Assembly (NCBI GenBank): GCA_021736985.1
Contig: JAIPEW010000015.1
Coordinates: 1,764-65,763, forward strand
Length of the DNA stretch: 64,000 bases
Origin: Clostridiales bacterium
GTDB lineage: Bacteria > Bacillota > Desulfotomaculia > Desulfotomaculales > VENG01
Direction of reading: 5' to 3'
Shown one piece after another: positions 6,824 through 63,398 of the stretch (within the stretch, counting starts at the first letter, position 1; the number at the start of each line of letters is the position of its first letter). A model generated the notes under the pieces. It was not told the origin of the DNA, ran no database searches, and saw only the letters and a program-made list of their open reading frames with translations. The position numbers and the translations under genes are program-made.

Positions 6824-7526
6824 CCAACACTATTAATGTAATATTGTCGCTTCCCCCGCGTTTTAGAGTTTCTTCTTGCAGAATCTCAACAGCATCACCC
6901 GGTTCATATTCCATAACTACCTGAAGTATCTCTTCACCCGGGACATGTTCTGTCAACCCGTCAGTACACAGTAATATTAAATCACCAGTACAAATATTAT
7001 ATTTAAATATATCTACTTCAAGCTGAGAAGAAGTTCCTACTGCCCTGGTAAGAACATTTCTCTGTTGATGTGACCTTGCTTCCAAAGATGTAATCTGTTT
7101 TTTACGTATTAACTCCTCTACCAAAGAGTGATCTTCCGTTAACCTGTAAATAGAAGAATCTCGTACCAGATAACACCGGCTGTCACCTACATTACCCACA
7201 GTCAACTCTTCCCCGCGAAAAATACAGGCACTAATAGTAGTACCCATGCCGTTGTAATTTTTATTGCTGTATCCCATATCATAGATTAATCTATTTGCTT
7301 TTAATATACTTAATTTCAAGATTGCACCTGGATCTTCTTTATCCAGGTCAGCTACTTCTAAGTCAGATTCAATACATTTAATCGCTTCATAACTTGCCAC
7401 TTCCCCAGCATTATGTCCTCCCATACCATCTGCAACTGCAAAAAAATTTAAGTCAGGGCGCATACAATAATAATCTTCATTTAAATTTCTTACTTTACCT
7501 ACATTAGTCACATGACTGCATTTCAT
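6813..7526 (-). CDS. prpC: PP2C-family Ser/Thr phosphatase
   Basis: Contains VADGMGGH, GMGTT, DGLT and SDNIT motifs. Overlaps the SEDS gene start and lies upstream of prkC. Confidence 0.92.
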   Translation of the reverse strand: MKCSHVTNVGKVRNLNEDYYCMRPDLNFFAVADGMGGHNAGEVASYEAIKCIESDLEVADLDKEDPGAILKLSILKANRLIYDMGYSNKNYNGMGTTISACIFRGEELTVGNVGDSRCYLVRDSSIYRLTEDHSLVEELIRKKQITSLEARSHQQRNVLTRAVGTSSQLEVDIFKYNICTGDLILLCTDGLTEHVPGEEILQVVMEYEPGDAVEILQEETLKRGGSDNITLIVLGVE

Positions 7527-7875
7527 GCCCCCACCTCACAAAAGCAAAATAAGCATTACCTATTTGCAAATAGTCCCCTTCTCTTAATAATTCAGGTTTT
7601 CTTACCAGGAAATTATTCAAATATAACTCCCCACTGCCGGATAAATCATCTATCCAGTAACAACCCTCCCTAAAAAATATAGAAGCACAACAATTGGCAT
7701 TCCCCGAGCTTAATGTTATAGTCATTTCCCTGCTCGCTTCGCTTAAATCAAGGGCAGTAATCTTATTATGATTCTTTTTACTTGACTGATGTTGTAATGA
7801 AAAAAACATTTTATACAGCGCAAAAAATAAAAATAAATACAGCATTATTAAAAATAAATATCTCAAAAAATGCAA
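7504..7875 (-). CDS. membrane-anchored FHA-domain protein
   Basis: N-terminal TM helix. The C-terminus matches the FHA pattern (ASIFFREG.YWIDDLSGSGELYLNN....LREGDYLQIGN..F.F). The start is uncertain: TTG 7875 lies after AAGGTGG, with GTG 7887 and ATG 7929 as alternatives. Confidence 0.7.
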   Translation of the reverse strand: MHFLRYLFLIMLYLFLFFALYKMFFSLQHQSSKKNHNKITALDLSEASREMTITLSSGNANCCASIFFREGCYWIDDLSGSGELYLNNFLVRKPELLREGDYLQIGNAYFAFVRWGHEMQSCD

Positions 7876-7889
7876 GATAAATTCCACCT

Positions 7890-8957
7890 TTAACGGCGGG
7901 TTAGTATACGCCGTCGAAGCTGCCCGCATGCAGCATCAATATCTGCTCCCAATTCTCTGCGCACTGTAACATTAATGTTCCTAGCCGTTAAAATATTTTT
8001 AAATTCCTCTATCCTGTTTTTAGGACTTTTTCTCACTCCCAGTTCGGGCACTTCATTTGCAGGAATTAAATTAACCAGGCAAAAAATGTTTTTTAGCTTA
8101 TGGGCTAATTCTCTGGCGTGTTCAGGCGCATCGTTAATATCATTTATTAGCGCATACTCAAAAGTTATTCGACGCTTGCTTCTTTCAGCATATTCCCGGC
8201 AGACCGGCAGTAAAACTGCAAGCGGGTACCTGTTATTTACGGGCATTAATGAATTTCTTATGTTATCATAAGCAGCATGGAGCGAAACCGCAAGTGTAAT
8301 AGAGAACCCCTCGCTGCACAATTTTCTAATCTGTGGAACTAACCCGCAAGTAGATAACGTTATACTCCTCTGGCTGATATTTAATCCCTGCTCTGAAGTT
8401 ATTCTGCTTATAAATTTAATTGTATTATCGTAATTGTCCAGCGGCTCACCGGAACCCATTAATACTACATTACTGATTCTCTCTCCTGTATCGTTTTGCA
8501 CAGCTATTACTTGTTCATATATTTCATAAGATTTTAAATCTCTTATCCAACCTTCCATACCCGATGCACATAAAGTGCATCCCATTTTACAACCTACTTG
8601 GGTAGAAACACATGCGGTCCTTCCGTGCTTATAAAGCATAAGCACACTCTCTACGGCATTACCGTCCTCCAACTCAAAAAGGTATTTCTTTGTGCCATCA
8701 TTTCTAGATACCTGCTTTTTAATTATTTTTAGATTGCCGGGATAACCTATTTCGTCCAACCTTGTACGTAAATCTAATGGCAAATCCGTCATTTCATGGA
8801 ACGAAGAAACACCTTTTTGAAACATCCATGTTGCAATTTGCCTGGATCTGAATTTTTTCTCTCCCATTTTCAGCATAATATCTTGAAGCTGGGATAAAGT
8901 TAATTCTTTAAAGCATATTTTCTTATCTAATGTTTTAAAATCCTGCTTATATTCCAT
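7890..8957 (-). CDS. rlmN: 23S rRNA/tRNA A2503 methyltransferase (radical SAM)
   Basis: Radical-SAM CxxxCxxC (GCKMGCTLCASG) and conserved RlmN C-terminal motifs (DIDAACGQL). Confidence 0.93.
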   Translation of the reverse strand: MEYKQDFKTLDKKICFKELTLSQLQDIMLKMGEKKFRSRQIATWMFQKGVSSFHEMTDLPLDLRTRLDEIGYPGNLKIIKKQVSRNDGTKKYLFELEDGNAVESVLMLYKHGRTACVSTQVGCKMGCTLCASGMEGWIRDLKSYEIYEQVIAVQNDTGERISNVVLMGSGEPLDNYDNTIKFISRITSEQGLNISQRSITLSTCGLVPQIRKLCSEGFSITLAVSLHAAYDNIRNSLMPVNNRYPLAVLLPVCREYAERSKRRITFEYALINDINDAPEHARELAHKLKNIFCLVNLIPANEVPELGVRKSPKNRIEEFKNILTARNINVTVRRELGADIDAACGQLRRRILTRR

Positions 8958-8996
8958 AATACTCTAACCTTTATCATATATTTTAGTCTAAAAATA

Positions 8997-10352
8997 TTAT
9001 TTATTGTCTTTTTTTTGCATGCGAGCCATATAAAAACCATCAGTATTATGTATATGTGGGAATAATTGAATATAACCCTTTTCCATGTCACCTATTTCTG
9101 ACGGCAGCAGTTCTTTAAAAGAACATAATGCAAAATTGTTATTTGCATGCAAAAAATCTTTAATAAGCTCATCATTTTCCTGCGGGGTAATTGTACATGT
9201 ACTATAAAGTAGTATCCCCCCGGGAACAAGACAGCGCGCAGCTTCTTCCATCATTTCTCTCTGCAGTTTTGCGATTTCATTAACCTGCTGTTCAGTTACC
9301 CGCCAGCGGGCATCCGGCCTTCTGCGTAATACACCAAGACCTGAACACGGAGCATCCAGTAATATGTAATCGGCCCAGTTCCGGTAATTATTAGCAAGTT
9401 TGCGTGCATCCTCCTGCACGGTTTCGACTATATTAATTCCCAACCTGCGGCAGTTGTCCATTACCAGTGACAGCTTGTGAGCAAATATATCACAGGCTAT
9501 AATTTTGCCGTTATTACCCATTAATTGTGCCAGGTGTGTACTTTTACCTCCGGGAGCACTGGCCATATCAATAACTTTTGCCCCCGGTCGCGGTGATAAG
9601 CCATGACCGGCCAGGATTGAACTTTCATCCTGCACTTGCATAAACCCTTCTGTAAGTGCACTTACATTCTCTAATCCTCCCGTATTGTTTAAAATAAGGC
9701 CTTCAGGGGCATAAGAAGTCTTTTCTACTGAAATCCCCTGTTCCGTTAACCAGGAAGAGAGCTCCGGTAGTGTTGTTTTTAGGGAATTAGCCCGCACCGT
9801 AAGTGGTGCTGCATTATTGTTTGCTTCACATAATCTTATTGTCTCTTCATACCCCAACCAATCCAGCCATTTGCGAACCATCCACTGCGGGTGAGAGTGG
9901 ACCAGTGATATGTACTCTACAGGATCTATTTCCGGGCCCGGAAAATTTATATTCTCCTTGCTGCGCGCAATATTGCGCAGCACCCCATTAACGTACTTAA
10001 CTGCACCGGGATTTCCGTAAGTCCGTGCCATTTCAGCACTTTCATTACAGGCAGCAGATACAGGAACACTGTCCATATAGAAAATCTGATAAAGCCCCAT
10101 GCGCAGTATATTCCTGGTAGCAGCTGTTTGTTTGCTCAACGGCTTTTTTAAAAATTGTTCTAAAATCCAGTCAAGTGTCTTTAAAGAACGTACAGTGCCA
10201 TAAACAAGCTCTGTTACAAATCTGCGATCAACATGCTTAAGATTAGCCCTACCCAGTTCCCCGCGCAGGGCTAAATTAGCATAAGCTTCTTTTTTCTCTA
10301 CATTTAATAATACTTTCAATGCTACTTCTCTTGCATTTAAGCCCTTTTTCAA
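8997..10352 (-). CDS. rsmB: 16S rRNA m5C967 methyltransferase
   Basis: N-terminal NusB-like domain followed by a SAM methyltransferase domain (DMASAPGGKS, DAPCSGLG, YSTCT). Confidence 0.92.
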   Translation of the reverse strand: MKKGLNAREVALKVLLNVEKKEAYANLALRGELGRANLKHVDRRFVTELVYGTVRSLKTLDWILEQFLKKPLSKQTAATRNILRMGLYQIFYMDSVPVSAACNESAEMARTYGNPGAVKYVNGVLRNIARSKENINFPGPEIDPVEYISLVHSHPQWMVRKWLDWLGYEETIRLCEANNNAAPLTVRANSLKTTLPELSSWLTEQGISVEKTSYAPEGLILNNTGGLENVSALTEGFMQVQDESSILAGHGLSPRPGAKVIDMASAPGGKSTHLAQLMGNNGKIIACDIFAHKLSLVMDNCRRLGINIVETVQEDARKLANNYRNWADYILLDAPCSGLGVLRRRPDARWRVTEQQVNEIAKLQREMMEEAARCLVPGGILLYSTCTITPQENDELIKDFLHANNNFALCSFKELLPSEIGDMEKGYIQLFPHIHNTDGFYMARMQKKDNK

Positions 10353-11144: not shown

Positions 11145-12086
11145 CTAAGAGCGCCCTAACATAGTCCCTTCCGGTAAAGAACGCCCCCTTAAAAAATCTG
11201 ACGCATTAACTTTTTTACCACCCTGGATTTGTAATTCAAGAATCCTAACCGTACCTACTCCTGTCTGAACTATAATATCACCCTTGTTTCCAGGCTCAAG
11301 CACCGTACCAGGCGTACTAGTTACGTCATTCGAATCCAGCACTTCTAATTTCCACACTTTTAGTACCTTACCATCATGAACAGTCCTTGCTCCTGGCCAG
11401 GGATTTAAGCCCCGGACCTTGTTTTTGACTTCAAGTGCAGTCTTTCCCCAATCTATAATCTCGTCTTCTCTAATCAAAGGTGGAGCATAAGTAGCTTCAC
11501 TGTCATTTTGTGGAGTACTTGAAATTTCCCCTTTTTCCATCCCATCAAGGGTATCCAGCAGCAAGCATGCTCCTTCTTCAGCCAGTCGATCATGCAAAAC
11601 TCCTGCTGTATCATCTTCATTCAAATCAACTTTTTTACCAAGCAAAACATTACCCGTGTCCATACCAGTATCCATCAGCATAGTGGACACGCCGCTGCAT
11701 TCTTCACCATTAATGAGCGCCCTGTGAATAGGCGCCGATCCCCTGTATTTGGGTAGTAATGAAGCATGAACATTTACACAACCTAACCCGGGGATATCCA
11801 GCAATTCACGTGGAAGTATTTTTCCATATGCTACTACAACTATCACCGTAGGTTCTATTTGTTTTATCTTATTTATAACTTCTTCAGAAGCTAACTTTTC
11901 CGGCTGGTAAACCGGTATACCTAAAATATTAGCTAATTTTTTTACCGGAGTTGAAGCTAATATCTTTCCCCTTCCCCGGGGTTTATCAGGTTGTGTAATA
12001 ACCATGCTTACTTTATGGGGGCTTTCTGCCAGGATTCTCAAAGAAGGAATTGCAAAATCGGGAGACCCCATGAAGACAATTCTCAT
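11145..12086 (-). CDS. fmt: methionyl-tRNA formyltransferase
   Basis: N-terminus MRIVFMGSPDFA, plus HASLLPKYRG and a C-terminal Fmt domain. Confidence 0.95.
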   Translation of the reverse strand: MRIVFMGSPDFAIPSLRILAESPHKVSMVITQPDKPRGRGKILASTPVKKLANILGIPVYQPEKLASEEVINKIKQIEPTVIVVVAYGKILPRELLDIPGLGCVNVHASLLPKYRGSAPIHRALINGEECSGVSTMLMDTGMDTGNVLLGKKVDLNEDDTAGVLHDRLAEEGACLLLDTLDGMEKGEISSTPQNDSEATYAPPLIREDEIIDWGKTALEVKNKVRGLNPWPGARTVHDGKVLKVWKLEVLDSNDVTSTPGTVLEPGNKGDIIVQTGVGTVRILELQIQGGKKVNASDFLRGRSLPEGTMLGRS

Positions 12087-12106: not shown

Positions 12107-12562
12107 TTATTTTTCTTTTCTCAAGTTAATAGACTTATCAATAAAAAGTATTCCATTTAAATGATCTATTTCATGCTGCAGTGCCCTGGCAAACAATCCT
12201 GTTGCATTATAACTGACTTCTTCTCCTTTGCGGTTTAATCCCGAAACTTGTACTTCCAGCGGGCGATGCACATCACCCAACACCCCGGGGACACTGAGGC
12301 ACCCCTCAGTTTGTGTATCACTTCCCTGTACACTTTCTACTTTCGGATTTATAAGCTCAATTAAACCTTTGCCTACATCTACAATAATTACACGTTTTGA
12401 AATGCCAATCTGCGGTGCAGCCAACCCTACCCCGTTATATTCATACATTGTATCTTTCATATTATCCAGAAGCTTATAAATGTTATTCTCTATTGAAGGT
12501 ACCTGTTTGGCCTTTTTCCTTAATATTTCATCTTCTGCTACTACTATCTTATAAACAGCCAA
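12107..12562 (-). CDS. def: peptide deformylase
   Basis: Contains GVGLAAPQIG, EGCLS and HEIDH motifs. TTG start 7 nt after AAGGGGTG. Confidence 0.95.
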   Translation of the reverse strand: MAVYKIVVAEDEILRKKAKQVPSIENNIYKLLDNMKDTMYEYNGVGLAAPQIGISKRVIIVDVGKGLIELINPKVESVQGSDTQTEGCLSVPGVLGDVHRPLEVQVSGLNRKGEEVSYNATGLFARALQHEIDHLNGILFIDKSINLRKEK

Positions 12563-12584
12563 TTAAAACACCCCTTTATCAAGT

Positions 12585-13095
12585 AAATATCCACGTACCT
12601 TTAGCCCACAACTAAGTGTGAAAACTTTTTCAGCAACCTGGTAAATGTCGGTGTACTCGGAGCGAACATACGGAGGCACATTCACAAAGCATATGCGGCC
12701 GAGGAAAAGCGATTGAGCTAGAGTACCACCGGCCTAACAAAAACAAAGTTTTCTAACTAGACTCTAGACTTCCACGGTCCATGGTCCACAACGGAGTATG
12801 AAAACTCTTCTGACAGTTAGGTGGAGGTCCGGTGGTTTCCTCCAGTCCAGCACTCAGTGCGCTTTTAAAAATTGTGCTATAAGTAGTATATTTTTACTTC
12901 TGTCTTTCCTGCATTAGAAATGGGCTGAGTGCTGGACGTATTTTTACTGGGAGCAAAAAGTACGTTTTAGTGTAAGCGCACTCTAATACTGCACAACAAG
13001 TTTTTTTACGCCCTAAGCAGCCGGACTTTCGGCATTTTACGGGCTATGCAGCACACCCAGACTCCGCTACCTTCCGGAAGTCCACCAGCCCTTTT
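12585..13095 (-). repeat. mosaic intergenic repeat, copy A (inverted orientation, variant core, plus accessory module)
   Basis: The reverse complement carries the family left flank (GGAAGGTAGCGGAGTCTGGGTGTGCTGCATAGCCCGT, 13079-13043) and right flank (CCTCCACCTAACTGTCAGAAGAGTTTTCATACTCCGTTGTGG, 12828-12787). A different ~200-bp core lies between them. Junction modules are at 12585-12640 and 12771-12812. Confidence 0.85.
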
Positions 13096-13134
13096 AATTT
13101 GTAGATCTAATAACTTTTTTAGGAAGTTTACATA

Positions 13135-15366
13135 TTAAATCATACTGTATGGATCCACGTCTACACTAATCCCTGCATTCTTTCCTGTCCCAACAGATTT
13201 CACGCAATAATCATATGTTTTTTTAACAGCATCTCTCAAAATTTCTTCATCTTTACTCCACAATACTATATGCAACCGGTAATTTCCGCGAACTCTCGTA
13301 AGCGGTGCGGGGGAAGGTCCTACAGCTATAATTCCCTTATCTTCGTTTATATACCCCTGCAGTATCTTAAATGCTGCTTCTGCCAGGCTGTTCACCTTAT
13401 TTTCGTCTTTCCCGAAGAATAACAACCTTATCATTCGGCTGTACGGGGGATACTGCATTTCTTTTCGCACGTTCATTTCTTCTTTAAAAAACCCCTCGTA
13501 ATCGCCTGCTGCAGCAGCTGTAACAGCATAATGTTCCGGATTAAAAGTTTGTACAATAACTTCTCCACCGCTTTTTGCCCGCCCCGACCTGCCAGCAACC
13601 TGTGTTATTAATTGAAAAGTACGCTCTGCCGAGCGAAAATCAGGTATATACAATCCAGTATCAGCACTTATTATTCCTACAAGCGTTACACCGGAAAAAT
13701 TTAACCCCTTGGCCACCATTTGTGTTCCTATTAATATATCTGCTTTTCTTTCCTCAAAATCTTTTAAAATTCTGTAATGTGCACCTTTACGCCCAGTAGT
13801 ATCGGCATCCATGCGTATTATTCTGGCCTGCGGAAAAAGATCTTTAGCCTCTTTTTCCACTTTTTGAGTACCGGTTCCAAAATATCCAATATACTTGCTC
13901 CGGCAGCCCGGGCACAAACTAGGTGCCATTTGCGAATAGTTGCAGTAGTGGCAGCGCAGATCTCCCTGGTGGTGATAAGTAAGTGATATATCACAGTTGG
14001 GACATTTAAGTACCATACCGCACTCCCGGCATACAACAAAAGTATTAAACCCGCGCCTGTTTAAAAAGAGTATTACCTGTTCGTTGTCCTCCAACCTCTT
14101 ATTTACAGCATTAAACAGTTCAGAACCAAAAATTGCCTTATTACCCGAACTAAACTCTTTGCGCATATCAACTACCTTTACAAACGGGAGAGCAATGTTG
14201 TCTACCCGGTTATCCATTTTCAAAAGAGTATACGGGCCCTTATCCTTCGCACGGCAGTAACTTTCCAGGGATGGTGTAGCACTGCCAAGCACTACCGCTG
14301 CACTGTTAACATAAGCACGATAAAGTGCAACAGCCCGTGCATGGTAACGTGGAGATTCTCCCTGTTTATAAGTAAACTCATGTTCTTCATCAATAACAAT
14401 AATCCCCAGGTTATTTACGGGCGAAAATATCGCTGATCTTGTTCCCAGTATAACATCAGCGTGCCCCTGGGAAATCCTGTTCCACTCTTCGTACCTTTCT
14501 CCTTTAGACATACGGCTATGCAGCAGCGCTACCCTATTTCCCAGGCGTTCTTTAAAACACCTGATCATCTGCGGAGTAAGAGATATTTCAGGAACCAGTA
14601 CAATAGCAGATTTTTTTAGCTGCAGCGCACAATCAATGCAGCGCAGGTAAACCTCTGTTTTCCCACTGCCTGTAACACCGTGCAGCAAAAACACCTTGTG
14701 AACATTTTTTTGCAAATAAAAATTTATATTTTTAACTACTTTTGCTTGTTCCCCGGTTAACTCGGGCTTAACCGGAGAAATATAAGAAGTAGAATTTACA
14801 TCTGACATTACTTCTTTAAAATATAAATATCCCTTGCTAATTAAAGTATCTATAACTGTATATGATACACAGGCCTTTTCTGATAATTGTTTTTTAGTTA
14901 ATCCCGGACTGCGAGCTGTTGTATTAAGAACTGCGACCTGTTTTGGTGCCCTTCTAATCTCCCGGGTAACCCTGTTCAACTCTTCAATTGAAAAATTAAC
15001 ATAGTAATGCTTTTCCCTGCACGACCTTGTTTTATTTAGTACTGGATGAGCTATAGCCTGTAGCGTACGCTGGGGAGAACTGAAATAGTAACCGGATATC
15101 CACCTGGCAATACGCAGCTGCTCTTTAGTAAGAACCGGTTCCTGGTCAAGCAGCTTAATAATACTTTTTAATTTTCTATCAACACTTGTATCCTCTGCCA
15201 AACCGACTACAAAACCACTGGCTTGTCTATTCCCAAGGGGTATTAAAACTCTGCTGCCGACCAGGTTATCACTCTGCATTTCTTCAGGAATTTTATAATG
15301 CAGTGATTTTTGCATGCTAATGCCTCCGGTCTCAACTATGACTTCAGCTACCCTTGAGACTTGCAA
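13135..15366 (-). CDS. priA: primosomal replication-restart helicase PriA
   Basis: Walker A GVTGSGKTEVY, DEEH box, Cys-rich zinc-binding insert (CxxC x4). TTG start after AAGGTGA. Confidence 0.95.
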   Translation of the reverse strand: MQVSRVAEVIVETGGISMQKSLHYKIPEEMQSDNLVGSRVLIPLGNRQASGFVVGLAEDTSVDRKLKSIIKLLDQEPVLTKEQLRIARWISGYYFSSPQRTLQAIAHPVLNKTRSCREKHYYVNFSIEELNRVTREIRRAPKQVAVLNTTARSPGLTKKQLSEKACVSYTVIDTLISKGYLYFKEVMSDVNSTSYISPVKPELTGEQAKVVKNINFYLQKNVHKVFLLHGVTGSGKTEVYLRCIDCALQLKKSAIVLVPEISLTPQMIRCFKERLGNRVALLHSRMSKGERYEEWNRISQGHADVILGTRSAIFSPVNNLGIIVIDEEHEFTYKQGESPRYHARAVALYRAYVNSAAVVLGSATPSLESYCRAKDKGPYTLLKMDNRVDNIALPFVKVVDMRKEFSSGNKAIFGSELFNAVNKRLEDNEQVILFLNRRGFNTFVVCRECGMVLKCPNCDISLTYHHQGDLRCHYCNYSQMAPSLCPGCRSKYIGYFGTGTQKVEKEAKDLFPQARIIRMDADTTGRKGAHYRILKDFEERKADILIGTQMVAKGLNFSGVTLVGIISADTGLYIPDFRSAERTFQLITQVAGRSGRAKSGGEVIVQTFNPEHYAVTAAAAGDYEGFFKEEMNVRKEMQYPPYSRMIRLLFFGKDENKVNSLAEAAFKILQGYINEDKGIIAVGPSPAPLTRVRGNYRLHIVLWSKDEEILRDAVKKTYDYCVKSVGTGKNAGISVDVDPYSMI

Positions 15367-15874: not shown

Positions 15875-15904
15875 AAAATCCCCCCGGTTTTTTAGATAAT
15901 TATA

Positions 15905-16276
15905 TTATCTAAACCGGAAATTTGTGACTCGGGAGAGGCAACGGCAAGCCCAATAGTTTACATATTCCGCTATAAACAAGTGCTTGTGGGCATTTAATTC
16001 GAAAACTCCCGTCCGATAACAATCTGCAAACCAAAAGGCCCAGTGAATTTCCAAAAGGTAGCGGAGCCTGGGGGGCATTGCATAGCCCGTCATTTGCAAA
16101 GTGTGATGTGGGAAGTGGGAAGTGTGACAATTTGAGGAAGTCTGCTGCATAGACTTCCTCTTTTTCCCACCTCTAATTCCCACTTCTCACCTCTGCCCTT
16201 TGCCCCGGTCCTCCACCCGGCTGTCAGAAGAATTTTCATACCCTGTTGTGGGCAAATACCCGCGGACGTTTAATTA
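15905..16276 (+). repeat. mosaic intergenic repeat, copy B
   Basis: Partial accessory module at 15921-16007, followed by a complete main unit at 16036-16276. Includes a perfect 9-bp apical hairpin, GAGGAAGTC (16134-16142) / GACTTCCTC (16152-16160). Confidence 0.9.
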
Positions 16277-16290
16277 TATTTTGAATGAGA

Positions 16291-16327
16291 ATACACACGG
16301 CAGCCGGTCGCAGGCTGCCGTGTGTAT
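16291..16327 (-). other. perfect 15-bp stem-loop abutting the coaBC stop codon
   Basis: ATACACACGGCAGCC-ggtcgca-GGCTGCCGTGTGTAT. No clear U-tract follows on either strand. Confidence 0.6.
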
Positions 16328-17520
16328 TACTTAAGTTTCTTTATATTATCTAGAATAATATGAGCTAGTTCGCTCTTACTAATTAACGGTAATTCTTTTA
16401 TTTCTCCACCGGGGAAAAGCAGTTTAGCCATATTATTGTCACTGTTAAAACCAGAACCTTTAATATGTACGTTGTTTGCAACAACCATGTCTAGATTTTT
16501 CTTTTGTATTTTTTTTACAGCGTTTTTTTCTAAGTTTTCTGTTTCAGCTGCAAACCCAATTAATAACTGCTTATTTTTTTTCTGCCCTAACTCCATTAGT
16601 ATATCAGTGTTTTTTTCCAATTCTAATACTAACTGGCCTGATTCTTTTTTTATTTTCTGCCCGGAAACTTCTTTCGGCTTATAATCTCCTACGGCTGCAG
16701 CTTTTATTACTACATCAACGGTTGAATAATGTTTAAGTACTTCATTATACATCTCACGGGCAGTAGCAGTTTCTACCAACTGAACTCCTGGAGGAGTAGC
16801 CGGGTGCAGCAGGCCGCTAACCAGTATTGTGCGTGCTCCTCTTTCGCAGGCAGCTCGTGCAAGGGCAAAACCCATTTTCCCGCTGCTTTTATTACTGATA
16901 AAGCGTACAGGATCTATTGGCTCCCTTGTTGCACCTGCAGTTACCAGTACAGTAAACCCGTTAAAATCCTGGTTTACGGTTAAATCTTTTTCTAGTTCTG
17001 AAATTATTTCAGGTATGTCCGGCAGGCGGCCGGGCCCGGTATCCCCACACGCCAAGTGCCCCTCCCCAGGTGTTAAAACACTATATCCAAGATCATTTAA
17101 TTTTTTTATATTTTCTTGCACAGCAGGATGCCGGTACATTTTAGAATTCATGGCAGGACAAATTAACACTGTACTTTCACAGCCCAGCAATAAAGCACTT
17201 AACAAGTCATCTGCCATTCCCAGGGCCGCTTTAGATAAAAAATTTGCAGTAGCGGGAGCGATTACTACTGCATCAGCTTTTTCAGCTAATTCTAAATGTG
17301 GAAACTTCCATCCGGGAGGAGATTCTAGAATATCCAGATGAACAGTATTTCCTGATATTGCTTCAAAAGTCAGCGGGCCCACAAACTGTTGCGCTGAATT
17401 ACTCATAACTACATAAACTTCCACACCCTGTTTTTTTAAAGCACTTACTAGATCAACTGCTCTAAAAGCTGCAATTCCACCAGTAACGCCTACTACAATT
17501 GTAAAACCTTTTAATTTCAT
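16327..17520 (-). CDS. coaBC: bifunctional phosphopantothenoylcysteine decarboxylase / synthetase
   Basis: N-terminal flavoprotein domain (GVTGGIAAF) and C-terminal CoaB domain (ISN.SSGKMG). Confidence 0.95.
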   Translation of the reverse strand: MKLKGFTIVVGVTGGIAAFRAVDLVSALKKQGVEVYVVMSNSAQQFVGPLTFEAISGNTVHLDILESPPGWKFPHLELAEKADAVVIAPATANFLSKAALGMADDLLSALLLGCESTVLICPAMNSKMYRHPAVQENIKKLNDLGYSVLTPGEGHLACGDTGPGRLPDIPEIISELEKDLTVNQDFNGFTVLVTAGATREPIDPVRFISNKSSGKMGFALARAACERGARTILVSGLLHPATPPGVQLVETATAREMYNEVLKHYSTVDVVIKAAAVGDYKPKEVSGQKIKKESGQLVLELEKNTDILMELGQKKNKQLLIGFAAETENLEKNAVKKIQKKNLDMVVANNVHIKGSGFNSDNNMAKLLFPGGEIKELPLISKSELAHIILDNIKKLK

Positions 17521-39377: not shown

Positions 39378-39655
39378 AAAATTAAAAGCTCCTTACACAA
39401 AGGCAAGGAGTTTATATGCGGTATAAGTAATATGCTTTTAATACCGGCTAAGACTCGCCTCTCCTCGAAGGGGTCTAAAATAAGCACAGGCAGGTTTCCT
39501 GGCTTCCGGATCTTCCTTCCCCTACACCTTCCCGCCCGTTTCGTTTCGGGCAGTGGCTGTTTAGTAAGAGTTGTCCCCGGTTACAGTGGCGGGCCCGCTT
39601 AGGATTCACACCTAATTCCCTATACCCCAAAGGCACCTGTACCTTATTTTTTATT
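39378..39655 (-). promoter_or_regulatory. cobalamin riboswitch with terminator expression platform
   Basis: Reverse strand contains AGGGAATTAGGTGTGAATCCTAAGCGGGCCCGCCACTGTAACCGGGGA and the B12 box AGCCACTGCCCGAAA...GGGCGGGAAGG. It is followed by the terminator CTCCTT-gcctttgtgt-AAGGAG + CTTTTAATTTT (39389-39410). Confidence 0.9.
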
Positions 39656-52374: not shown

Positions 52375-52636
52375 CTGAACGCAGATAACAATCTGCAAAT
52401 TAAAGGGCCGGGGATTTCTGGAAAGTAGCAGAGTCCAGGTCGCTGCATAGCCCATCATTTGTGAAGTGGGAGGTGGGAAGTGTGACAATTTGAGGAAGTC
52501 TGCTGCGTAAACTTTTTCTTTTTCCCACCTCTAATTTCCCACTTCTCACCTCTGCCCTTTGCCCCGGTCCTCCACCTGGCTGTCCAGAAAAATTTTTCAT
52601 ACTCCATTGCAAACCAGAGGCCCGTGAAAGTTTAAT
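52375..52636 (+). repeat. mosaic intergenic repeat, copy C
   Basis: Full main unit. Its 3' junction module (GTTTAATT) overlaps the stop codon of the convergent gene at 52632. Confidence 0.9.
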
Positions 52637-53591
52637 TCTCAGGGTAAAGTAAAGGGTTTAGATATCTCTTCACCAAACTCTCCCCGTACTCACCAGATGG
52701 CGCCCAATTACCCCCCAGTTCCTCAAAGGAAGAAGCTCTTCCTTTAATTACAGAAAAATGCCTGGGGTCCGTTGTAACATTCTTGGGATAACCCGGGGCC
52801 CCGGCATATAAGGCCAGGTGATCCAGGTGAGCTGCCACCCCATCTTCCCAGGTATTAAATTTCTGGTGAGCCCCGGGATCATTGTTTGCGCCCCCCTCAT
52901 GTATTTTCATGCCGCAGGGATTTTTATAATTCTCTGACACCACTCCGTTAAACTTGCCAAACCCGGTTTCCTTTGCTGCCTGGGCATAAGCACCCGCCGG
53001 GTTCACTCCACCGTGGCTATCAACCAGTTCCCAGTAAAGCTCAGCGAGCTCTATAAAAACGTCGCTGGCTCCCCGGCTTTTTGCCCACTGCTGCGCTTGT
53101 TTTACACCAATTTTTGCCGAACTTATAATAGGAGTATTATTGCTTTTATCTTGTTCTTTAGTTAATTTATCAAATGAAATTAAAACCGTTTTAGTATTCT
53201 CGTTCCAGCTTACTTTTGCACCGAGCGACTCGCTTACAAACCTGACTGGAACCATAGTTTTTCCTTTTATTATTACAGCAGGCTGCTGTAATATAATTTT
53301 ATCACTATTAACTTTTACTTCTTTATACCCCGGCTTCAACTTTATTACCGTATTGTCCCTGATAGCGACCACTCTCTTTTCTTTTGACTCCCAGGTTACA
53401 GAAGCTCCCAGGGAATTAAAAATTTCACGAACCGGCAGCATCACTCTATTATCAATAATTTGCGGCAGGCAGGTATAATCTTGTGCCTCTCCATTAATTT
53501 TTACAGCAATGCTGCTGCCGGCAAAAGCATAATTACTACTTAACAAAAGCAATAATAAAAAAACAAATAAAATTGTAGTTATGTTTCTCAC
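52632..53591 (-). CDS. secreted cell-wall hydrolase: copper-amine-oxidase-like N-domain plus glucosaminidase domain
   Basis: Signal peptide, a 'stalk' domain pattern (ING......P.I.N.R.M.PVR.....G..V.W), and a C-terminal LytD-type glucosaminidase-like region. Confidence 0.7.
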   Translation of the reverse strand: MRNITTILFVFLLLLLLSSNYAFAGSSIAVKINGEAQDYTCLPQIIDNRVMLPVREIFNSLGASVTWESKEKRVVAIRDNTVIKLKPGYKEVKVNSDKIILQQPAVIIKGKTMVPVRFVSESLGAKVSWNENTKTVLISFDKLTKEQDKSNNTPIISSAKIGVKQAQQWAKSRGASDVFIELAELYWELVDSHGGVNPAGAYAQAAKETGFGKFNGVVSENYKNPCGMKIHEGGANNDPGAHQKFNTWEDGVAAHLDHLALYAGAPGYPKNVTTDPRHFSVIKGRASSFEELGGNWAPSGEYGESLVKRYLNPLLYPEN

Positions 53592-53719
53592 TTATGTCAC
53601 TCCAATAGCATTATTTTTTTATTTAATTCTTTATTATACAAAAAAAACCTTTTTCATATAAATTTTTATAAAAAATAATAAAAGATCGGTTTTGCCGGTT
53701 TATTTCCACAGTTGATACA

Positions 53720-53810
53720 CTAAACTTTAACAAGCCTTTCGCCCACAACAAAAAATGAAAGCTACAGGCTAAGCAACGCATCTGAACCGCTCCACTCCGC
53801 CCTTTCTATG
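53720..53810 (-). repeat. mosaic repeat, core-less degenerate copy F
   Basis: The reverse complement GAAAGGGCGGAGTGGAGCGGTTCAGATGCGTTGCTTAGCCTGT|AGCTTTCATTTTTTGTTGTGGGCGAAAGG joins the family left flank directly to the junction module. Confidence 0.6.
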
Positions 53811-53948
53811 AAGTAGCGTTTTAAAACCAGGGTTTTCTGATAAAACTATTAAAATAATTTTAAAATCTAAAATATTGTTATTTAATATAAAAAAACTTAT
53901 AATATTTTTTGTTATTCATATATATTGCAGAAATAGGAGGAAGTTTGT

Positions 53949-55293: not shown

Positions 55294-55336
55294 AAGTAAG
55301 CTGGGATAAATTCCCGGCTTACTTATTATTTGTTTT
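55294..55336 (+). terminator. intrinsic terminator of the SNF transporter gene
   Basis: 13-bp stem AAGTAAGCTGGGA / TCCCGGCTTACTT followed by ATTATTTGTTTT. Confidence 0.8.
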
Positions 55337-55341
55337 AAATA

Positions 55342-55603
55342 GAAAACTACCTAAAAACTATGGCCAGGGCCGGGGGATTTCCGGAAGGTAGCGGAGTCCG
55401 GGTGCGCTGCATAGCCCGTCATTTGCGAAGTGTGATGTGGGAAGTGTGATAATTTGAGGAAGTTATGAAGACTTTTTCTTTTTCCCACCTCTAATTTCCC
55501 ACTTCTCACCTCTGTCCTTTGCCCCGGTTCTCCACCTGGCTGTCAGAAGAGTTTTCATATTCCGTTGTGGGCCTAACGATCGTGGGCATTTAATTCTAAA
55601 ACT
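55342..55603 (+). repeat. mosaic intergenic repeat, copy D (archetype)
   Basis: Complete unit running from GAAAACTACC through the left flank, 5' arm, apical loop, pyrimidine-rich 3' arm, CTGTCAGAAGAGTTTTCATA, GTTGTGGGC..CGTGGGCATTTAATTCTAAAAC. A further degenerate fragment lies at 55673-55705. Confidence 0.9.
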
Positions 55604-55822
55604 AACCTCACCAATTGGATTAACTGGTATTTAGACACTGCCTCTTCAAGGATAAACTGTAAAACAAATTTTCAGAACGGAGTTTTCGATTTAGAATTTA
55701 AAATTTTTTTATAAACTTTATATTTTTGAATTTTTAGTATCTAAATAAACATATACTCGAAAAAAGTTATTAATTTTTTGTAAGGAATGTAAAACTTATT
55801 GATTGTACGTTCCTCCCACCCT

Positions 55823-58951: not shown

Positions 58952-60232
58952 TTACACTTCTCTGCTATTTTTTTTCTTTTGCTCTAGATTAAAAAATATT
59001 TCTGCAAACACTTTTTCTCTTCCGTTATTTTGAGGTTCATAATACTTTCTATCTTTGATCCGGTCAGGAAGGTACTGCTGATTTACCCAATTATTTGTAT
59101 AGTCATGAGGATATTTATAATCATTTCCGCGGCCTAACCTGGCAGCTCCTTTATAATGGCTGTCTTTTAGATGCATTGGAACTTCACCGGTAGCCCCACT
59201 TCTAATGTCCTCAATCACCTTGTTTAATGCTTCGTATGCACTGTTAGACTTGGGTGAAAGGCACAGTTCAATAACAGCTACGGCCAGGGGGGTCCGGGCC
59301 TCGGGAAGTCCCAACCGCTCAGCAGCCTGGCATGCAGAAACAACCCTGCTCCCTACGCCGGGATTAGCTAATCCAATATCCTCATAAGCAATCACCATTA
59401 ACCTGCGTAAAACTGGGGTTAAATCGCCGCCCTCAAGTATTTGTCCCAGGTAATGTATTGCCGCATGAACATCACTCCCGCGAATAGACTTATGAAAAGC
59501 ACTGAGCATATCATAATAGTTATCCCCATTTTTATCGAACCCCACGGCTTTCTTATACATGCATTCCTCCGCTGCCTGCATATCAACGCTGATTTTACCT
59601 GCTTCGGGAACAGCTGATAACACGGCTAACTCCAGTGCATTTAAAGAAGAACGCATATCTCCACCTGCTGCAAAAGATATAAAGTCGAATACATCTTCTG
59701 CAATGTTTACATCATATAATCCAAGGCCGTTTGTTTTATCTGTTAATGCACGGTTCAACCCTTTTTTTATCTCTTCAGCAGATAAAGACTTGAGCTCGTA
59801 TATTTGGCACCTGGAGCGTATAGTAGGATTTACATCATGATAAGGATTTTCGGTAGTAGCTCCTATTAATATAATCAGCCCGCTTTCTATATAAGGCAGC
59901 AAATAGTCCTGCTGAGCCTTGTTAAACCGGTGTATTTCATCGACGAAAAGCATAGATCTTCCTTGCTGCCTTGCTTTTTTTACAACAGTTTCCATGTCCT
60001 TTTTACCTGAATCTACAGCGTTAATTGCATAAAAAGGAAAGCCTGTAGTACCTGAAATTGCTCTTGCAATTGATGTTTTTCCCGTACCCGGCGGGCCATA
60101 TAATATCATGGGAGAAATCCGCCCTGCTTTTATCATGCGGTTTATTATTTTCCCTTCAGCAAGCAGGTGCTGTTGGCCAACAACTTCATTTATGTTCCCT
60201 GGTCTCATTCTGGACGCCAATGGTTTTTCCAT
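58952..60232 (-). CDS. rarA: replication-associated recombination protein A (AAA+ ATPase)
   Basis: RPGNINEVVGQQHL, GPPGTGKTS and DEIHRFNK motifs plus the MgsA C-terminal domain. Confidence 0.93.
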   Translation of the reverse strand: MEKPLASRMRPGNINEVVGQQHLLAEGKIINRMIKAGRISPMILYGPPGTGKTSIARAISGTTGFPFYAINAVDSGKKDMETVVKKARQQGRSMLFVDEIHRFNKAQQDYLLPYIESGLIILIGATTENPYHDVNPTIRSRCQIYELKSLSAEEIKKGLNRALTDKTNGLGLYDVNIAEDVFDFISFAAGGDMRSSLNALELAVLSAVPEAGKISVDMQAAEECMYKKAVGFDKNGDNYYDMLSAFHKSIRGSDVHAAIHYLGQILEGGDLTPVLRRLMVIAYEDIGLANPGVGSRVVSACQAAERLGLPEARTPLAVAVIELCLSPKSNSAYEALNKVIEDIRSGATGEVPMHLKDSHYKGAARLGRGNDYKYPHDYTNNWVNQQYLPDRIKDRKYYEPQNNGREKVFAEIFFNLEQKKKNSREV

Positions 60233-60253
60233 TTTATCCGTTCTCCTTTAGTT

Positions 60254-60668
60254 TGAAAACTTTGTTTTTGCTACTTGCCATTGACCCTCATTCGCTCCGT
60301 TTACCTCAAAGGCCAAACTAAAGCTAAGATTCAAGTCGCTCTCTCCGGAGCAACAGCAAGCTTAGTAGTTTTCATACTCCGGTGTGAACCGGAGGCTCGT
60401 GGGCGTTTTAATTTGAAAACTCTCTAAAAAGCTATGGTACTAAACGCAGGGTAAATTGAAAAGGCGTTGGATTGTTGCGTTGCTCAACCCGTCATTTGCG
60501 AAATATGATATGAAAGGTGGGAAGTGTGACAATTTGAGGAAGTCTGCTGCGTAGAGTTTTTCTTTTTCCCACCTCTAATTTCCACTTCTCACCTCTGCCC
60601 TTTACCCCGCCCTCCACCCTACTGTCAGAAGAGTTTTCATACAGCCAGAAACTCGTAAATATTTAATA
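60254..60668 (+). repeat. mosaic intergenic repeat, copy E (accessory module + main unit)
   Basis: Accessory module at 60255-60421 and main unit at 60422-60668. The 3' end overlaps the pheA stop codon at 60663-60665. Confidence 0.9.
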
Positions 60669-61793
60669 CATACATCTATGAGAAATAATTTCATGCTGGC
60701 GGGTAACAGAGTAATTTAGAATAATTTTAAATATTTCGCTTGCTACATAAGGATCAATACCTTTTTCCCTGGATTCTTGAGCTGCATTTTCTATGATTTC
60801 TTTTTCTCGGATTATATCTTTTATTCCATGCTTTTCTTTATAACAAGCAGCACGGTCAGTTAATTTCATTCTGTGATCCAGGAGTTCTAACAGTTTTTTA
60901 TCTACAACGTCAATGTCCCGGCGCAAATCCTGGAGTGTTTTCTCTATAGAGTAATTACAGATGCTTGTTTGTTCAGAATAATAAGACCCTGCTACTCTGA
61001 ATGTACTGCATTTATTTTTTATATTATCCATTACAATTTTTACTCGAGTATCATGTATATGCCCGCAAAAGTCAACAGTAAATATATATTCTCCTAGTTT
61101 TTTCTTGGAAGGTCGCGATTCTATCCTTGTCAAGTTAATATCTTGTAAAGCAAACTCGTTTAGTACTGCATTAAGGGCCCCCGGCCTGTCACTAATAGTA
61201 AAAATTACAGTAGTTTTGCAGTTCTTAATATATTTTATTTCCTCTTTGCCCAACAGGAAAAACCTGGTTACATTTTCAGAACCATTACCCGGATCATCTT
61301 CTAAAATTTGCAGGCGATATCTTCTGGCCGCTGCTTCCGAAGCCAGTGCTGCCCATGGGCGATTACTTTTGGATACTTCTTTTGCTGCATGAGCAGTACT
61401 AGCTGTTTCCACGAGGGTCGCCCCGGGTAGATTATTTTCCAAATAGCTTCTGCACTGGGCAAGTGCCTGGGGATGAGAGAATATTTTTCTAATATCTTTC
61501 ATGGCTACACCTGGTGGTACCAGTAAACAGTGCCGAACAGGCAGCAGTACTTCCCTGCATATTTTCAAATCTTTATATCTTATTAAAAGATCCATTGTTT
61601 GCCCTACCGGGCCTTCGTTTGAATTTTCTACAGGGAGTAAACCATTTTCCCACCATGCTTCCGTAATACCCCGGCATACTTCCTCCAGTGTATTGCAAGG
61701 TACAGTATATTTTTTATTCCACTGAAGATTACAGGTTACTGCTTCTTCGGAAAATGTTCCCTGCGGTCCTAAAAAAGCAATTCTATTTTCCAT
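60663..61793 (-). CDS. pheA: bifunctional prephenate dehydratase / chorismate mutase (PDT-ACT-CM order)
   Basis: PDT domain (IAFLGPQGTFSEEA), ACT domain (DRPGAL...L......INLT.IESRP), and a C-terminal AroQ-type chorismate mutase helix pattern (LR..ID..D..LL.LL..R). ATG at 61793 lies 5 nt after GAGGTGG. Confidence 0.88.
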   Translation of the reverse strand: MENRIAFLGPQGTFSEEAVTCNLQWNKKYTVPCNTLEEVCRGITEAWWENGLLPVENSNEGPVGQTMDLLIRYKDLKICREVLLPVRHCLLVPPGVAMKDIRKIFSHPQALAQCRSYLENNLPGATLVETASTAHAAKEVSKSNRPWAALASEAAARRYRLQILEDDPGNGSENVTRFFLLGKEEIKYIKNCKTTVIFTISDRPGALNAVLNEFALQDINLTRIESRPSKKKLGEYIFTVDFCGHIHDTRVKIVMDNIKNKCSTFRVAGSYYSEQTSICNYSIEKTLQDLRRDIDVVDKKLLELLDHRMKLTDRAACYKEKHGIKDIIREKEIIENAAQESREKGIDPYVASEIFKIILNYSVTRQHEIISHRCMY

Positions 61794-61927: not shown

Positions 61928-62956
61928 CTATACAACAGCTGGAGATAATTTGCCATTGATAACCCTGGACAGTTCTTCAATCTTACCAGCAAGAGTATAC
62001 ATTTCTTCGGGATACAAAGACTGGGGCCCGTCACTCAAGGCCTCCATGGGCTCCGGATGCATTTCTATTATCAAGCCGTCTGCCCCGGCTGCAATTGCAG
62101 CCATGGACATGGGGGAAACTAATTCCCGTTTTCCCGTACCATGGCTGGGATCTACTATCACAGGCAAGTGGCTCAACTCTTTTACCAGGGGAACAGCACT
62201 TAAATCAAGGGTATTGCGCGTATATTTTTCAAAACTCCTTATTCCACGTTCGCACAGCACAACATCAGGGTTACCCTCCGATAATATATATTCAGCTGAC
62301 ATAAGCCATTCTTCTACTGTAGCTGAAAGGCCCCTTTTTAAAAGAACTGGTTTGCCGCACCGGCCTACAGCTTTTAGCAGCTTAAAATTCTGCATATTCC
62401 TGGTTCCTATTTGCAGCATATCTACATAATTTAAAGCAATTTCCAGGCTGTGCTCATCCATTACTTCTGTCACTGCAGCCAGCCCGTTTTGTTCAGCTGC
62501 TTCTGCCATGTACTCCAGTCCTTTTTCTTCAAGTCCCTGGAAACTGTACGGTGATGTTCTCGGCTTGTAAGCTCCTCCCCTTAAAATACTTGCACCTGCA
62601 CCTGCAGCATGATATGCTGCAGCCTGAATTTGTTCCCTGCTCTCAACAGCACACGGGCCTGCAATTAACACTGGTTCACTTTCACCAAAAACGCTGCCTT
62701 TAACGTCAATACATGTATTACTCTCATGAACTTCCCTGCTGACCAGCTTGAATGGCTTCATGATAGAAATTACTTCCTTAACCCCGGGTAAAGTCTCCAG
62801 GTTCAAAACTTTAAGTGATTTTCTGTCTCCTACGGCACCAATAACAATTCTTTTAACACCTTTAATCAAGTAAGATTGAAAACCAAAACCAGTTAATTTA
62901 TCTTTTACAGCATTAACTTCTGCTTCACCTGCATTTACATCCATAACAATAACCAT
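61928..62956 (-). CDS. aroF: 3-deoxy-7-phosphoheptulonate (DAHP) synthase, type I-beta with N-terminal regulatory domain
   Basis: Core motifs GPCAVES, LRGGA.KPRTSPY, KRG and DPSH. ATG at 62956 follows GAAGGAGG. The longer track ORF reads through the T-box terminator. Confidence 0.9.
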   Translation of the reverse strand: MVIVMDVNAGEAEVNAVKDKLTGFGFQSYLIKGVKRIVIGAVGDRKSLKVLNLETLPGVKEVISIMKPFKLVSREVHESNTCIDVKGSVFGESEPVLIAGPCAVESREQIQAAAYHAAGAGASILRGGAYKPRTSPYSFQGLEEKGLEYMAEAAEQNGLAAVTEVMDEHSLEIALNYVDMLQIGTRNMQNFKLLKAVGRCGKPVLLKRGLSATVEEWLMSAEYILSEGNPDVVLCERGIRSFEKYTRNTLDLSAVPLVKELSHLPVIVDPSHGTGKRELVSPMSMAAIAAGADGLIIEMHPEPMEALSDGPQSLYPEEMYTLAGKIEELSRVINGKLSPAVV

Positions 62957-62988
62957 GCAAATTCCTCCTTCAATTTTTAAATATAAAT

Positions 62989-63398
62989 AAAAAAAACCGC
63001 TGCTCGCCCCCATGAGGACGAAAGCAGCGGCTTCCGCGGTACCACCTCGCTTGGTCATAAAGACCCACTAAGCAGGTACGGGAATAAATAATTCTCTAAT
63101 AAAATAAAAAAATTTTTCGCCTTAGGGACGAAAAATTTCGCGTTACCACCCTAGTTGGCATATATAAATGCCCACTTCTCTGGTAAGGTACGGGAACATT
63201 GATTACTCCGATACCCCTTTCCTTTTAACGGTGGAAATTTCCGTCACGGCCTACTTAATGATCGTGTTCAGCCGTGCAGTTCAGGAGAGAACTTCAGCAA
63301 GTCGTGTATTAGGAGTGCTCTCAGTCCACGACACTCTTTCCCTGTAAAACTGGGGCCTACCTACTTTTCTCCATCATCACCAGTACTTATTAAATTTT
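62989..63398 (-). promoter_or_regulatory. T-box leader with two successive T-box/terminator modules
   Basis: Reverse strand shows Stem I elements, T-box core AACTAGGGTGGTAACGCG (63156-63139) with a terminator, and a second core AAGCGAGGTGGTACCGCGG (63052-63034) with a terminator CCGCTGCT..AGCAGCGG + T8. Confidence 0.85.

Follow-up and report, generated by a model that had tools for sequence, protein, structure and literature searches.

In the 64-kb stretch of DNA analysed here (the window), the genes priA, def and fmt form a tightly packed cluster that opens, between priA and def, into a single long spacer. Within that spacer lies a segment of about 200 nt (12841-13040) held between two flanks that recur at other loci of the window, which raises the question of what this segment is and how it came to lie between two housekeeping genes. 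A reading made from the letters alone (the sequence-only reading) had described the locus as copy A of a repeat family, with the family flanks acting as a scaffold around a core completely different from that of the other copies, and had suggested a search of the core against Rfam and a comparison of the priA-def spacer in related genomes.

The priA-def spacer in the window and in its relatives

The three genes lie on the minus strand in the order priA (13135-15366), def (12107-12562) and fmt (11145-12086), and the gap of about 570 bp noticed in the letters measures 572 bp (12563-13134). The PriA encoded in the window is ~50% identical to the PriA proteins of Desulfallas, Desulfoscipio and Pelotomaculum and 59-65% identical to those of a handful of metagenomic relatives. 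When priA neighbourhoods were compared, the distance from the priA stop codon to the def start was 17-61 bp in all eight related lineages sampled (17 bp in L022, L026, L057 and L127, 18 bp in L056, 19 bp in L025, 33 bp in L129 and 61 bp in L128), and the suggested comparison of the spacer therefore points to an insertion in the window.

The junction itself reads ...ATGATG TAA AAAAGGGGTG...GTG in the relatives and ...ATGATT TAA TATGTAAACTTCC ... CTTGATAAAGGGGTGTTTTAA TTG in the window. The ancestral junction sequences, ATGAT.TAA and AAAGGGGTG..start, survive at both sides of the extra material, which indicates that an ancestral priA-def junction was split by ~550 bp. Judged from these comparisons, the whole 572-bp spacer is an insertion: ~550 bp of minus-strand sequence belonging to the repeat family separates the stop codon of priA from the ribosome-binding site of def (AAAGGGGTG, 12577-12569; the def start codon, TTG, is 12562-12560). 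Two units are present in it, A and X-A, and behind each stands a module of ~52 nt that we call RE. The extent of the insertion, the second unit (X-A, 12743-12620) and the two RE modules (12806-12757 and 12626-12574) all lie beyond what the sequence-only reading had described. For annotation, the 572-bp gap is to be read as a repeat insertion, neither a missed gene nor a riboswitch.

On its left side the insertion meets priA in TTTAATATGTAAAC (13126..13139, minus strand), a sequence that takes in the priA stop codon (13137-13135) and is similar to the final 14 nt of an RE module (CATTTAATTCTAAAAC); copy D shows a comparable sequence at its own left edge (55332-55347). TAAA possibly flanks copy A as a target-site duplication, the relatives being too diverged to supply an exact empty site. 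In the Logan collection, short-read contigs from this organism stop precisely within the family flanks, the behaviour that a genomic repeat would produce. A promoter/terminator scan of the spacer (12563-13134) found no terminator-like site and no minus-strand promoter, and a def promoter carried inside the insertion was rejected on the latter ground.

A modular repeat family across the window

At least six bodies and 8-9 RE modules were found in 64 kb, copy numbers that cover this 64 kb of the genome, with the A-type core counted within the same stretch. Copy A, at about 12770-13110 on the minus strand, has both flanks in common with the family. On the plus strand, copy B (15955..16277; alternatively about 16010-16290) consists of an RE module (B0), a body with a long-hairpin core and a further RE module (B1); copies C (52384..52643) and D (55332..55604; alternatively 55355-55602) are each a body followed by RE, D with a 7-bp direct repeat, AAAACTA, at 55343-55349 and 55598-55604; and an array at 60249..60673 has the order X-E (60249-60368), RE, E (60440-60673), RE. 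Copy F (53716..53835, minus strand) is a weak match in which a left-flank-like hairpin is fused directly to RE, with no core. The units measure 110-330 nt, their orientation relative to the neighbouring genes is mixed, those neighbours, with ~40% of the window's ORFs scanned, are housekeeping genes, and no reading frame is conserved between copies. Several copies are degenerate or truncated, B retaining four of the seven pairs of the closing helix P1 described below, E having no left flank and F no core.

At least four body types can be distinguished (A-type, B-E type, X-A and X-E), besides core-less F, and an RE module stands after each. The core of the B-E type is a ~110-nt hairpin with a purine arm and a pyrimidine arm, and X-A and X-E have only their opening ~25 nt in common. 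RE (consensus GTTTTCATACTCCGTTGTGGGCC..CGTGGGCATTTAATTCnAAAAC, ~52 nt) is placed after every body, before B and E, and after core-less F. The stem sequence of its hairpin varies between copies with the pairing kept, and weak terminator-like hairpins followed by T-rich tracts occur within it. Every body starts with GAAAAC(T) (GTAAAC in A) and ends with (A)GTTTTC, and these ends can pair over 7-9 bp; GAAAACT...AGTTTTC brackets each body, but the conserved RE falls outside that pair. A, B, D, E, F, X-A and X-E all have AAAC at their left boundary; this sequence and the RE hairpin could be the conserved target and a subterminal hairpin of an IS200/IS605-derived element, but tandem RE modules explain both equally well. 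The unit boundaries have no convincing promoter or terminator. We also considered RE as a sigma-70 promoter (TTGTGG-18-TTTAAT), a candidate that the promoter scan does not pick up.

To place the family among known elements, we searched nucleotide, RNA and protein collections. With Rfam 15, the whole window at gathering score gave only a T-box and a cobalamin riboswitch, both away from the repeat elements; at E<=10, no relevant family was found on A, D, E/X-E or the homologous element in L025 described below, and the suggested search of the core against Rfam likewise yielded no family match, even at E<=10. IS605-orfB, HEARO and other transposon-associated RNA families matched none of A, D, E and the L025 element at gathering score or at E<=10. 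A right-flank pattern, CTCCACCNNNCTGTCN{5,10}TTTTCATA, gave 19 single unrelated matches in GTDB representative genomes and 29 matches in JGI metagenomes, none of them confirmed by blastn/nhmmer; as an exact pattern it is too specific, failing to match even the L025 element, and its result is not proof of absence elsewhere. Scans of viral contigs with A/L025 consensus motifs returned nothing real, blastn in distant mode gave no match of the spacer to plasmids and phages, and neither exact look-up of 10 repeat-derived ORFs nor a homology search found them in protein collections. RarA, tried as a route to the loci syntenic with copies C-F, gave matches dominated by Bacilli at equal identity. No transposase or integrase family was matched among 19 of the ~50 plausible ORFs of the window and one ORF of L025, and the literature on repeat motifs and on MITEs in Desulfotomaculum yielded nothing.

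Other classes of element were considered and rejected. ARAGORN found no tRNA or tmRNA from which the repeats could derive, and Rfam lent no support to apparent resemblances to SRP RNA (CCGGAAGGUAGCGG), to the c-di-GMP-II riboswitch or to domain V of group II introns. The ends of integron attC cassettes are RYYYAAC ... GTTRRRY, with an intI gene nearby. RE begins with GTTTTCA and ends with GAAAAC, which reverses this order and puts pyrimidines at positions that call for purines, and no integrase was found among the scanned ORFs.

Copy A, its interior and its structural frame

That copy A keeps the family flanks, as the sequence-only reading held, is borne out by matches to copy D of 90.7% over 54 nt on the left side (13092-13039 vs 55366-55419, E 4e-15) and 88% over 50 nt on the right (12832-12783 vs 55524-55573, E 7e-12), and the module profiles agree, the left flank being present in A-D and the right flank in A-E. 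Read along the minus strand, the body of unit A (13125-12807) opens with a left leader (TTCCTAAAAAAGTTATTAGATCTACAAATTAAAAGGG, 13089..13125), parts of which are common to B/C (ATCTnCAAAttAAA) and to D/E (CCTAAAAA), as judged from alignment and a left-flank profile match at 13109-13037. A conserved 5' domain follows (13041..13088), comprising the 5' strands of helices P1a (CUGGUGG, 13088-13082) and P1b (CUUCC, 13080-13076), the P2 hairpin (UAGCGG..CUGCAUA, 13069-13045) and GCCC (13044-13041). The P3 region (GUAAAAUGCC..CUUAGGGCGU, 13005..13040) makes up the opening 35-36 nt of what had been delimited as the core; it encloses an inner GCCG/CGGC hairpin (13033-13020), is kept in the L025 element and is missing from B-E. 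The part found only in copy A (12844..13004) is AT-rich; one hairpin occupies 12964-12937, and a perfect 13-bp inverted repeat (12937-12925/12857-12845) forms the base of another, of 93 nt. Beyond it lie the P1 3' strand, GGAGG-AAA-CCACCGG (12829..12843), a 15-mer that also occurs in the L025 element and is represented by GCCCCGG in B-E, and the right flank (ACCUCCACCUAACUGUCAGAAGA, 12807..12828), which is common to B-E.

Two RE modules and the second unit complete the minus-strand insertion. RE module A1 (12757..12806) begins with GTTTTCATAC (GTTTTC = 12805-12800) and matches the nhmmer RE profile with E 3e-11. X-A (12620..12743) has a different body, closed by GAAAACUUU / AAAGUUUUC, whose opening ~25 nt match X-E, and RE module A2 (12574..12626; RE profile E 6.4e-11) adjoins the def ribosome-binding site.

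The internal pairings attributed to the core fared unequally. The 13-bp pair GTCCAGCACTCAG (12845-12857) / CTGAGTGCTGGAC (12925-12937) is indeed perfect, with a length attained in 1/1000 dinucleotide shuffles, and bounds a 93-bp AT-rich segment, the repeat being perfect over 13 bp and 79% over 24 nt. The 9-bp hairpin at 12937-12964 is likewise real, with one bulged C, -8.9 kcal/mol and a z-score of -5.9. A 9-bp pair, AGTGCGCTT / AAGCGCACT, does cross the 13-bp helix in the pseudoknot-like manner described, but it lies at 12856-12864 / 12974-12982, one position from where it had been placed, and is expected by chance in 8.4% of shuffles; alone, this crossing helix is not beyond chance. The GCCGGACTTTCGGC hairpin (GCCG/CGGC) is also present, but at 13020-13033 and not at 13018-13031, two positions off, and its stem is only 4 bp. 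On the family (minus) strand the core as a whole folds at -60.9 kcal/mol (z -3.45), which 0/200 shuffles equal, and on the plus strand the z-score is -2.1. In these predictions 12857-12845 pairs with 12937-12925 (perfectly) or with GUCCGGCUGCUUAG at 13026-13013 (with G-U pairs), and alternative conformers within copy A are possible.

The only homolog found outside the window is an element in L025 (JGI contig Ga0187647_1000300; PriA 63% identical) at L025:7500-7735. It corresponds to ~290 extra nt, relative to L056 and L022, in the spacer between MarR and the gene for a 123-aa protein, and is, from this sequence comparison, a second and independent insertion, in another genus. As a query against the whole window, the L025 element matched copy A only, leaving B-E unmatched. 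A first match (13090-13005, E 2e-4) spans the left flank and 35 nt of the core, ending at CTTAGGGCGT, and a second, collinear match (12847-12810) includes the identical 15-mer GGAGGAAACCACCGG (12843-12829); just before GGAGGAAACCACCGG, L025 has only a short hairpin.

These matches modify the claim of a completely different core. The claim stands relative to B-E, whose core profile has no match in copy A at E<=10, and the A core (12841-13040) has no second match in the window better than E 0.3 and none in ~1.4 Mb of other loci; it does not stand for 13040-13005, which is homologous to the L025 element. On this comparison, part of the supposedly unrelated core of copy A is family sequence that is missing from B-E, and ~12844-13004 is unique to A. 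Because L025 resembles A and not B-E, the A-type may be the older form and B-E derived, the reverse of the polarity assumed by the sequence-only reading.

The flanks of copy A are predicted to form a common set of helices with those of the other copies. P1a joins CUGGUGG (13088-13082) to CCACCGG (12835-12829) in copy A and reads GCCGGGG/CCCCGGU in C and D, with a U-A vs G-C difference relative to A; it pairs 7/7 in A, L025, C and D and 6/7 in E (GCAGGGU / ACCCCGC), and is degenerate in B (4/7). The minimum free energy (MFE) folds of A, D and L025 are all closed by P1, those of A and L025 through P1a (CYGGUGG / CCACCGG) and P1b (YUUCC / GGAGG, with an AAA bulge), and P1 forms from the flanks in A, C, D, E and L025 regardless of the interior. 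In P2 (UAGCGG..CUGCaUA) the four inner pairs are preserved in every copy; where the bases differ, A and D have G-U, C has A-U, L025 has G-C, and B and F have two G-U. The G-U pairs make the structure strand-specific. P3 (GCCC/GGGC) with its inner hairpin is predicted by local folds in A and L025, and the outer GAAAACU/AGUUUUC helix is used in the MFE folds of X-A, X-E and the L025 element. RNAalifold, applied to flank constructs, gave a competing pairing, GGA..CCGG / CCGG..UCC, with one compensatory A-U -> C-G change in L025; under either the P1 or the RNAalifold model, the flanks pair with each other. Relative to shuffles, the folds have z-scores of -3.8 for A, -3.45 for the A core and -3.1 for L025, and the family strand of A and L025 folds somewhat better than the complement.

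Because P1 pairs the flanks and P2 keeps its pairing through base changes, the flanks are, in these models, a structural frame around a swappable interior. The notion of a scaffold for alternative cargo is upheld as a structural description, in that the P1 frame holds different interiors, the interior being cargo in that sense alone; to call it unrelated was an overstatement, as the L025 element shares the edges of the core.

Nature of the element and competing explanations

We think it probable that the segment 12841-13040 is the variable interior of copy A in a lineage-restricted, non-autonomous, modular, non-coding and strongly folded interspersed repeat that resembles MITEs and BOX elements. 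The family itself is not yet described, though it is an ordinary kind of selfish repeat. Such a repeat would be mobilised in trans, now or formerly, by an enzyme not encoded in the window, for which the structured frame or the RE end would be the recognition site. Interiors, which would not be needed for spread, could for that reason be exchanged or remodelled, through recombination between copies and local palindrome growth, and the unique ~160 nt of copy A (12844-13004, with the 13-bp-repeat hairpin) may have arisen by such remodelling. Since the element lies on the sense strand of a spacer that has neither a terminator-like site nor a minus-strand promoter, the priA-def-fmt mRNA would include it as a large folded segment between cistrons (-107 kcal/mol), which could alter def expression or mRNA stability but probably has no dedicated host function. 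The locus is a clean case of a folded selfish repeat inside the essential priA-def-fmt operon with the flanking stop codon and ribosome-binding site intact, and offers a natural test of how much intercistronic structure this operon tolerates.

The closest parallel in design is offered by the BOX elements of Streptococcus pneumoniae and S. suis, modular repeats of boxA, boxB(n) and boxC whose terminal modules pair in the predicted RNA and whose middle module may be missing, repeated or exchanged for another (Croucher et al. 2011, PMC3049150). In S. suis, BOX families combine seven subsequences in different permutations; BOX elements occupy a narrow lineage, terminal inverted repeats (TIR) and target-site duplications (TSD) have been reported for them, and in transcribed regions their structure may affect co-transcribed genes (PMC3049150). 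The window family likewise consists of separable, non-coding intergenic modules in permutations (flanks, RE, A- and B-type cores, X bodies, core-less F), with terminal modules that pair, an interior dispensable for the frame, a narrow lineage and an insertion in a transcribed region. Unlike BOX, it has larger units (110-330 nt) that form a multi-stem junction and not a simple stem-loop, it carries an extra constant ~52-nt 3' RE module, and its host differs at the phylum level. By analogy, the window family appears to work like BOX and other mosaic repeats, a likeness of design and not of family membership.

Parallels of a second kind are found in intergenic repeats of Neisseria, the NIMEs, in which a short constant inverted repeat stands on both sides of every variable unit. 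NIMEs, together with the BIMEs of enterobacteria, are named in PMC3184786. As in these systems, unlike bodies are separated in the window by one constant short motif, which also occurs in solitary copies, and tandem arrays mix units (A with X-A, X-E with E). Here, however, RE is ~52 nt and not a simple palindrome, the bodies themselves are large structured units, and there is no evident link to pilin-type recombination or to REP-associated transposases.

MITEs and the IS200/IS605-derived PATEs are non-autonomous elements that retain only the structured ends of a transposon. The window family resembles them in being small, partly AT-rich, highly base-paired, multi-copy and non-coding, in its insertion polymorphism (eight relatives have no element at the priA-def site, and at the MarR spacer L025 carries one where L056 and L022 do not), and in the short conserved GAAAAC or GTAAAC at the left boundary of every window unit. 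It differs in that no autonomous partner is seen in the window, the candidate GAAAACT/AGTTTTC repeats bracket the body and not RE, and no Rfam transposon-associated RNA family matches. Several points weigh against the interspersed-repeat reading. An enzyme for mobilisation was not identified, nor were terminal inverted repeats or a target-site duplication that could be called clear; covariation is drawn from ~6 copies and one outside homolog; and G-U pairs and a multi-stem architecture, along with the somewhat better folding of the family strand, look more like selected RNA than like a typical DNA-transposon MITE.

The same architecture is what would be expected if the units were genes for a structured non-coding RNA family, for example RNAs that serve a transposon-encoded or defence protein as guides or adaptors, an explanation that we consider unlikely but worth weighing seriously. 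The frame of P1, P2 and RE would then be a protein-binding scaffold, the interior a specificity or cargo domain, and copy A one allele. Consistent with this are the helices with G-U pairs, whose pairing is kept through base changes on one strand only, the better folding of the family strand than of its complement, the multi-stem junction closed by the 5' and 3' ends, with an outer GAAAACU/AGUUUUC helix in every unit, that of L025 included, the constant 3' module with weak terminator-like hairpins and T-rich tracts, and a frame conserved between two genera. However, no Rfam family matches at E<=10, no partner protein gene adjoins any copy among the ORFs scanned, unit boundaries have no convincing promoter or terminator, B (P1 4/7), E (no left flank) and F (no core) are degenerate, and the mixed orientation and sporadic presence in relatives fit insertion. 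Helices that stay paired through base changes in two genera around interchangeable interiors raise the question whether mobility or an RNA function is what the structure is selected for.

A distinctly unlikely origin for the interior of copy A is a nested insertion, in which an unrelated 93-bp palindromic element (12845-12937) with perfect 13-bp terminal inverted repeats entered an element of the A/L025 type. The perfect 13-bp repeat (24 nt at 79%) around a 93-bp AT-rich segment has the appearance of such an event, and its perfection inside an otherwise diverged element suggests a recent origin; L025, moreover, holds only a short hairpin just before GGAGGAAACCACCGG. Yet the 93-bp segment has no second copy in the window or in the other loci compared, no target-site duplication is visible at its ends, and a terminal hairpin at that position is also part of the L025 architecture.

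More improbable, though not negligible, is that the units are cassettes of an unrecognised system, each a structured body with an RE site (two YGTGGRC repeats and a TTTAAT-N-AAAAC core), with bodies swapped at RE-like cores. Bodies would be inserted and exchanged by site-specific recombination or through an RNA or single-strand intermediate, and such a system could account for the sequences resembling an RE tail at the left edges of A and D, for arrays that join unlike bodies, and for RE copies that stand alone. If it were so, the frame would be a true scaffold for interchangeable RNA domains, serving as guides or adaptors of a partner protein encoded elsewhere.

Two further explanations have very little probability. 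A host cis-regulatory RNA for def-fmt, an attenuator or processing site with mutually exclusive helices, would suit an element on the sense strand between priA and def in which 13026-13013 and 12937-12925 compete for 12857-12845; it is excluded in practice by the absence of the element from 8/8 relatives, with their 17-61 bp junctions, and also contends with a spacer that holds no terminator-like site and no minus-strand promoter and with the same modules at unrelated loci in both orientations. Equally improbable is that the core is meaningless filler with chance pairings, for although the 9-bp crossing helix and the 4-bp hairpin fall within chance expectation and the central ~160 nt have no homolog, the 13-bp perfect repeat is attained in 1/1000 shuffles, the core fold (z -3.45) is matched by 0/200 shuffles, the hairpin at 12937-12964 has a z-score of -5.9, and the edges of the core are kept in L025.

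A homolog of the element in a related lineage

Among the loci of related lineages fetched around priA, one (L025; JGI 3300017698, contig Ga0187647_1000300) carries on its minus strand, at 7500-7735, a homolog of the repeat element, one copy of which (copy A) lies in the priA-def spacer of the window. Its host is a relative with 63% PriA identity. The element, which has a fold z of -3.1, is a ~290-nt insertion in its own right, bounded on one side by a MarR gene and on the other by the promoter of a Cys-rich gene of 123 aa. The window form to which it is similar is copy A, not copies B-E.

Unit junctions and the coaBC region

The left junctions of units A (13126-13139) and D (55332-55347) resemble the final 14-16 nt (TTTAAT-N3-4-AAAC) of RE, the constant module found 3' of each repeat body. 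At unit A, this RE-tail-like junction overlaps the priA stop codon, and the window PriA ends in ...SMI versus ...SMM or ...NMM in the relatives (three read). Unit D has a 7-bp direct repeat, AAAACTA, on both sides (55343-55349 and 55598-55604).

Between coaBC and a small ORF upstream of priA, L025 and two further related loci, L022 and L056, carry three genes (locus positions ~7000-9900): one of 123 aa, a MarR gene and one with a PALP domain. The window lacks all three, and at 15875-16326 RE and copy B stand in their place. A terminator-like hairpin, a strong 16-bp palindrome (16290-16328), lies directly downstream of coaBC and adjoins the end of copy B.

Bodies and cores of the family

In two further bodies, X-A (12620-12743, minus strand) and X-E (60249-60368, plus strand), the common sequence is confined to the first ~25 nt (AGTTnGAAAACTTTGTTTTTG) and the subsequent RE, and a GAAAACU/AGUUUUC helix closes both of them. 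A short, core-less form, F (53716-53835, minus strand; weak profile matches, E 0.0075 and 0.8), consists of a left-flank-like hairpin fused directly to an RE-like motif, and is located upstream of a cell-wall hydrolase-like gene (52632-53591).

The interior common to copies B-E (16090-16200, 52456-52558, 55419-55518 and 60492-60601) forms a long hairpin whose 5' arm is rich in purines (GTGGGAAGTGGGAAGTGTGA..) and whose 3' arm is rich in pyrimidines (..TTTCCCACTTCTCACCTCT). With arms of this composition, triplex or H-DNA might be favoured as well (compare PMC4666352). Within copy E, the antisense (minus) strand holds a promoter-like site, TTGTCA-16-TATCAT (60505-60532; 10/12 matches), that is directed at the rarA/mgsA gene (58952-60232) and may therefore be a repeat-borne promoter.

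Known RNA elements elsewhere in the window

Two minus-strand elements were assigned to Rfam families. A T-box leader (63121-63386; RF00230, 117.8 bits) lies upstream of a DAHP synthase gene (61928-63058), and a cobalamin riboswitch (39472-39655; RF00174, 114.5 bits) heads a run of ~14 minus-strand ORFs (28-39 kb).
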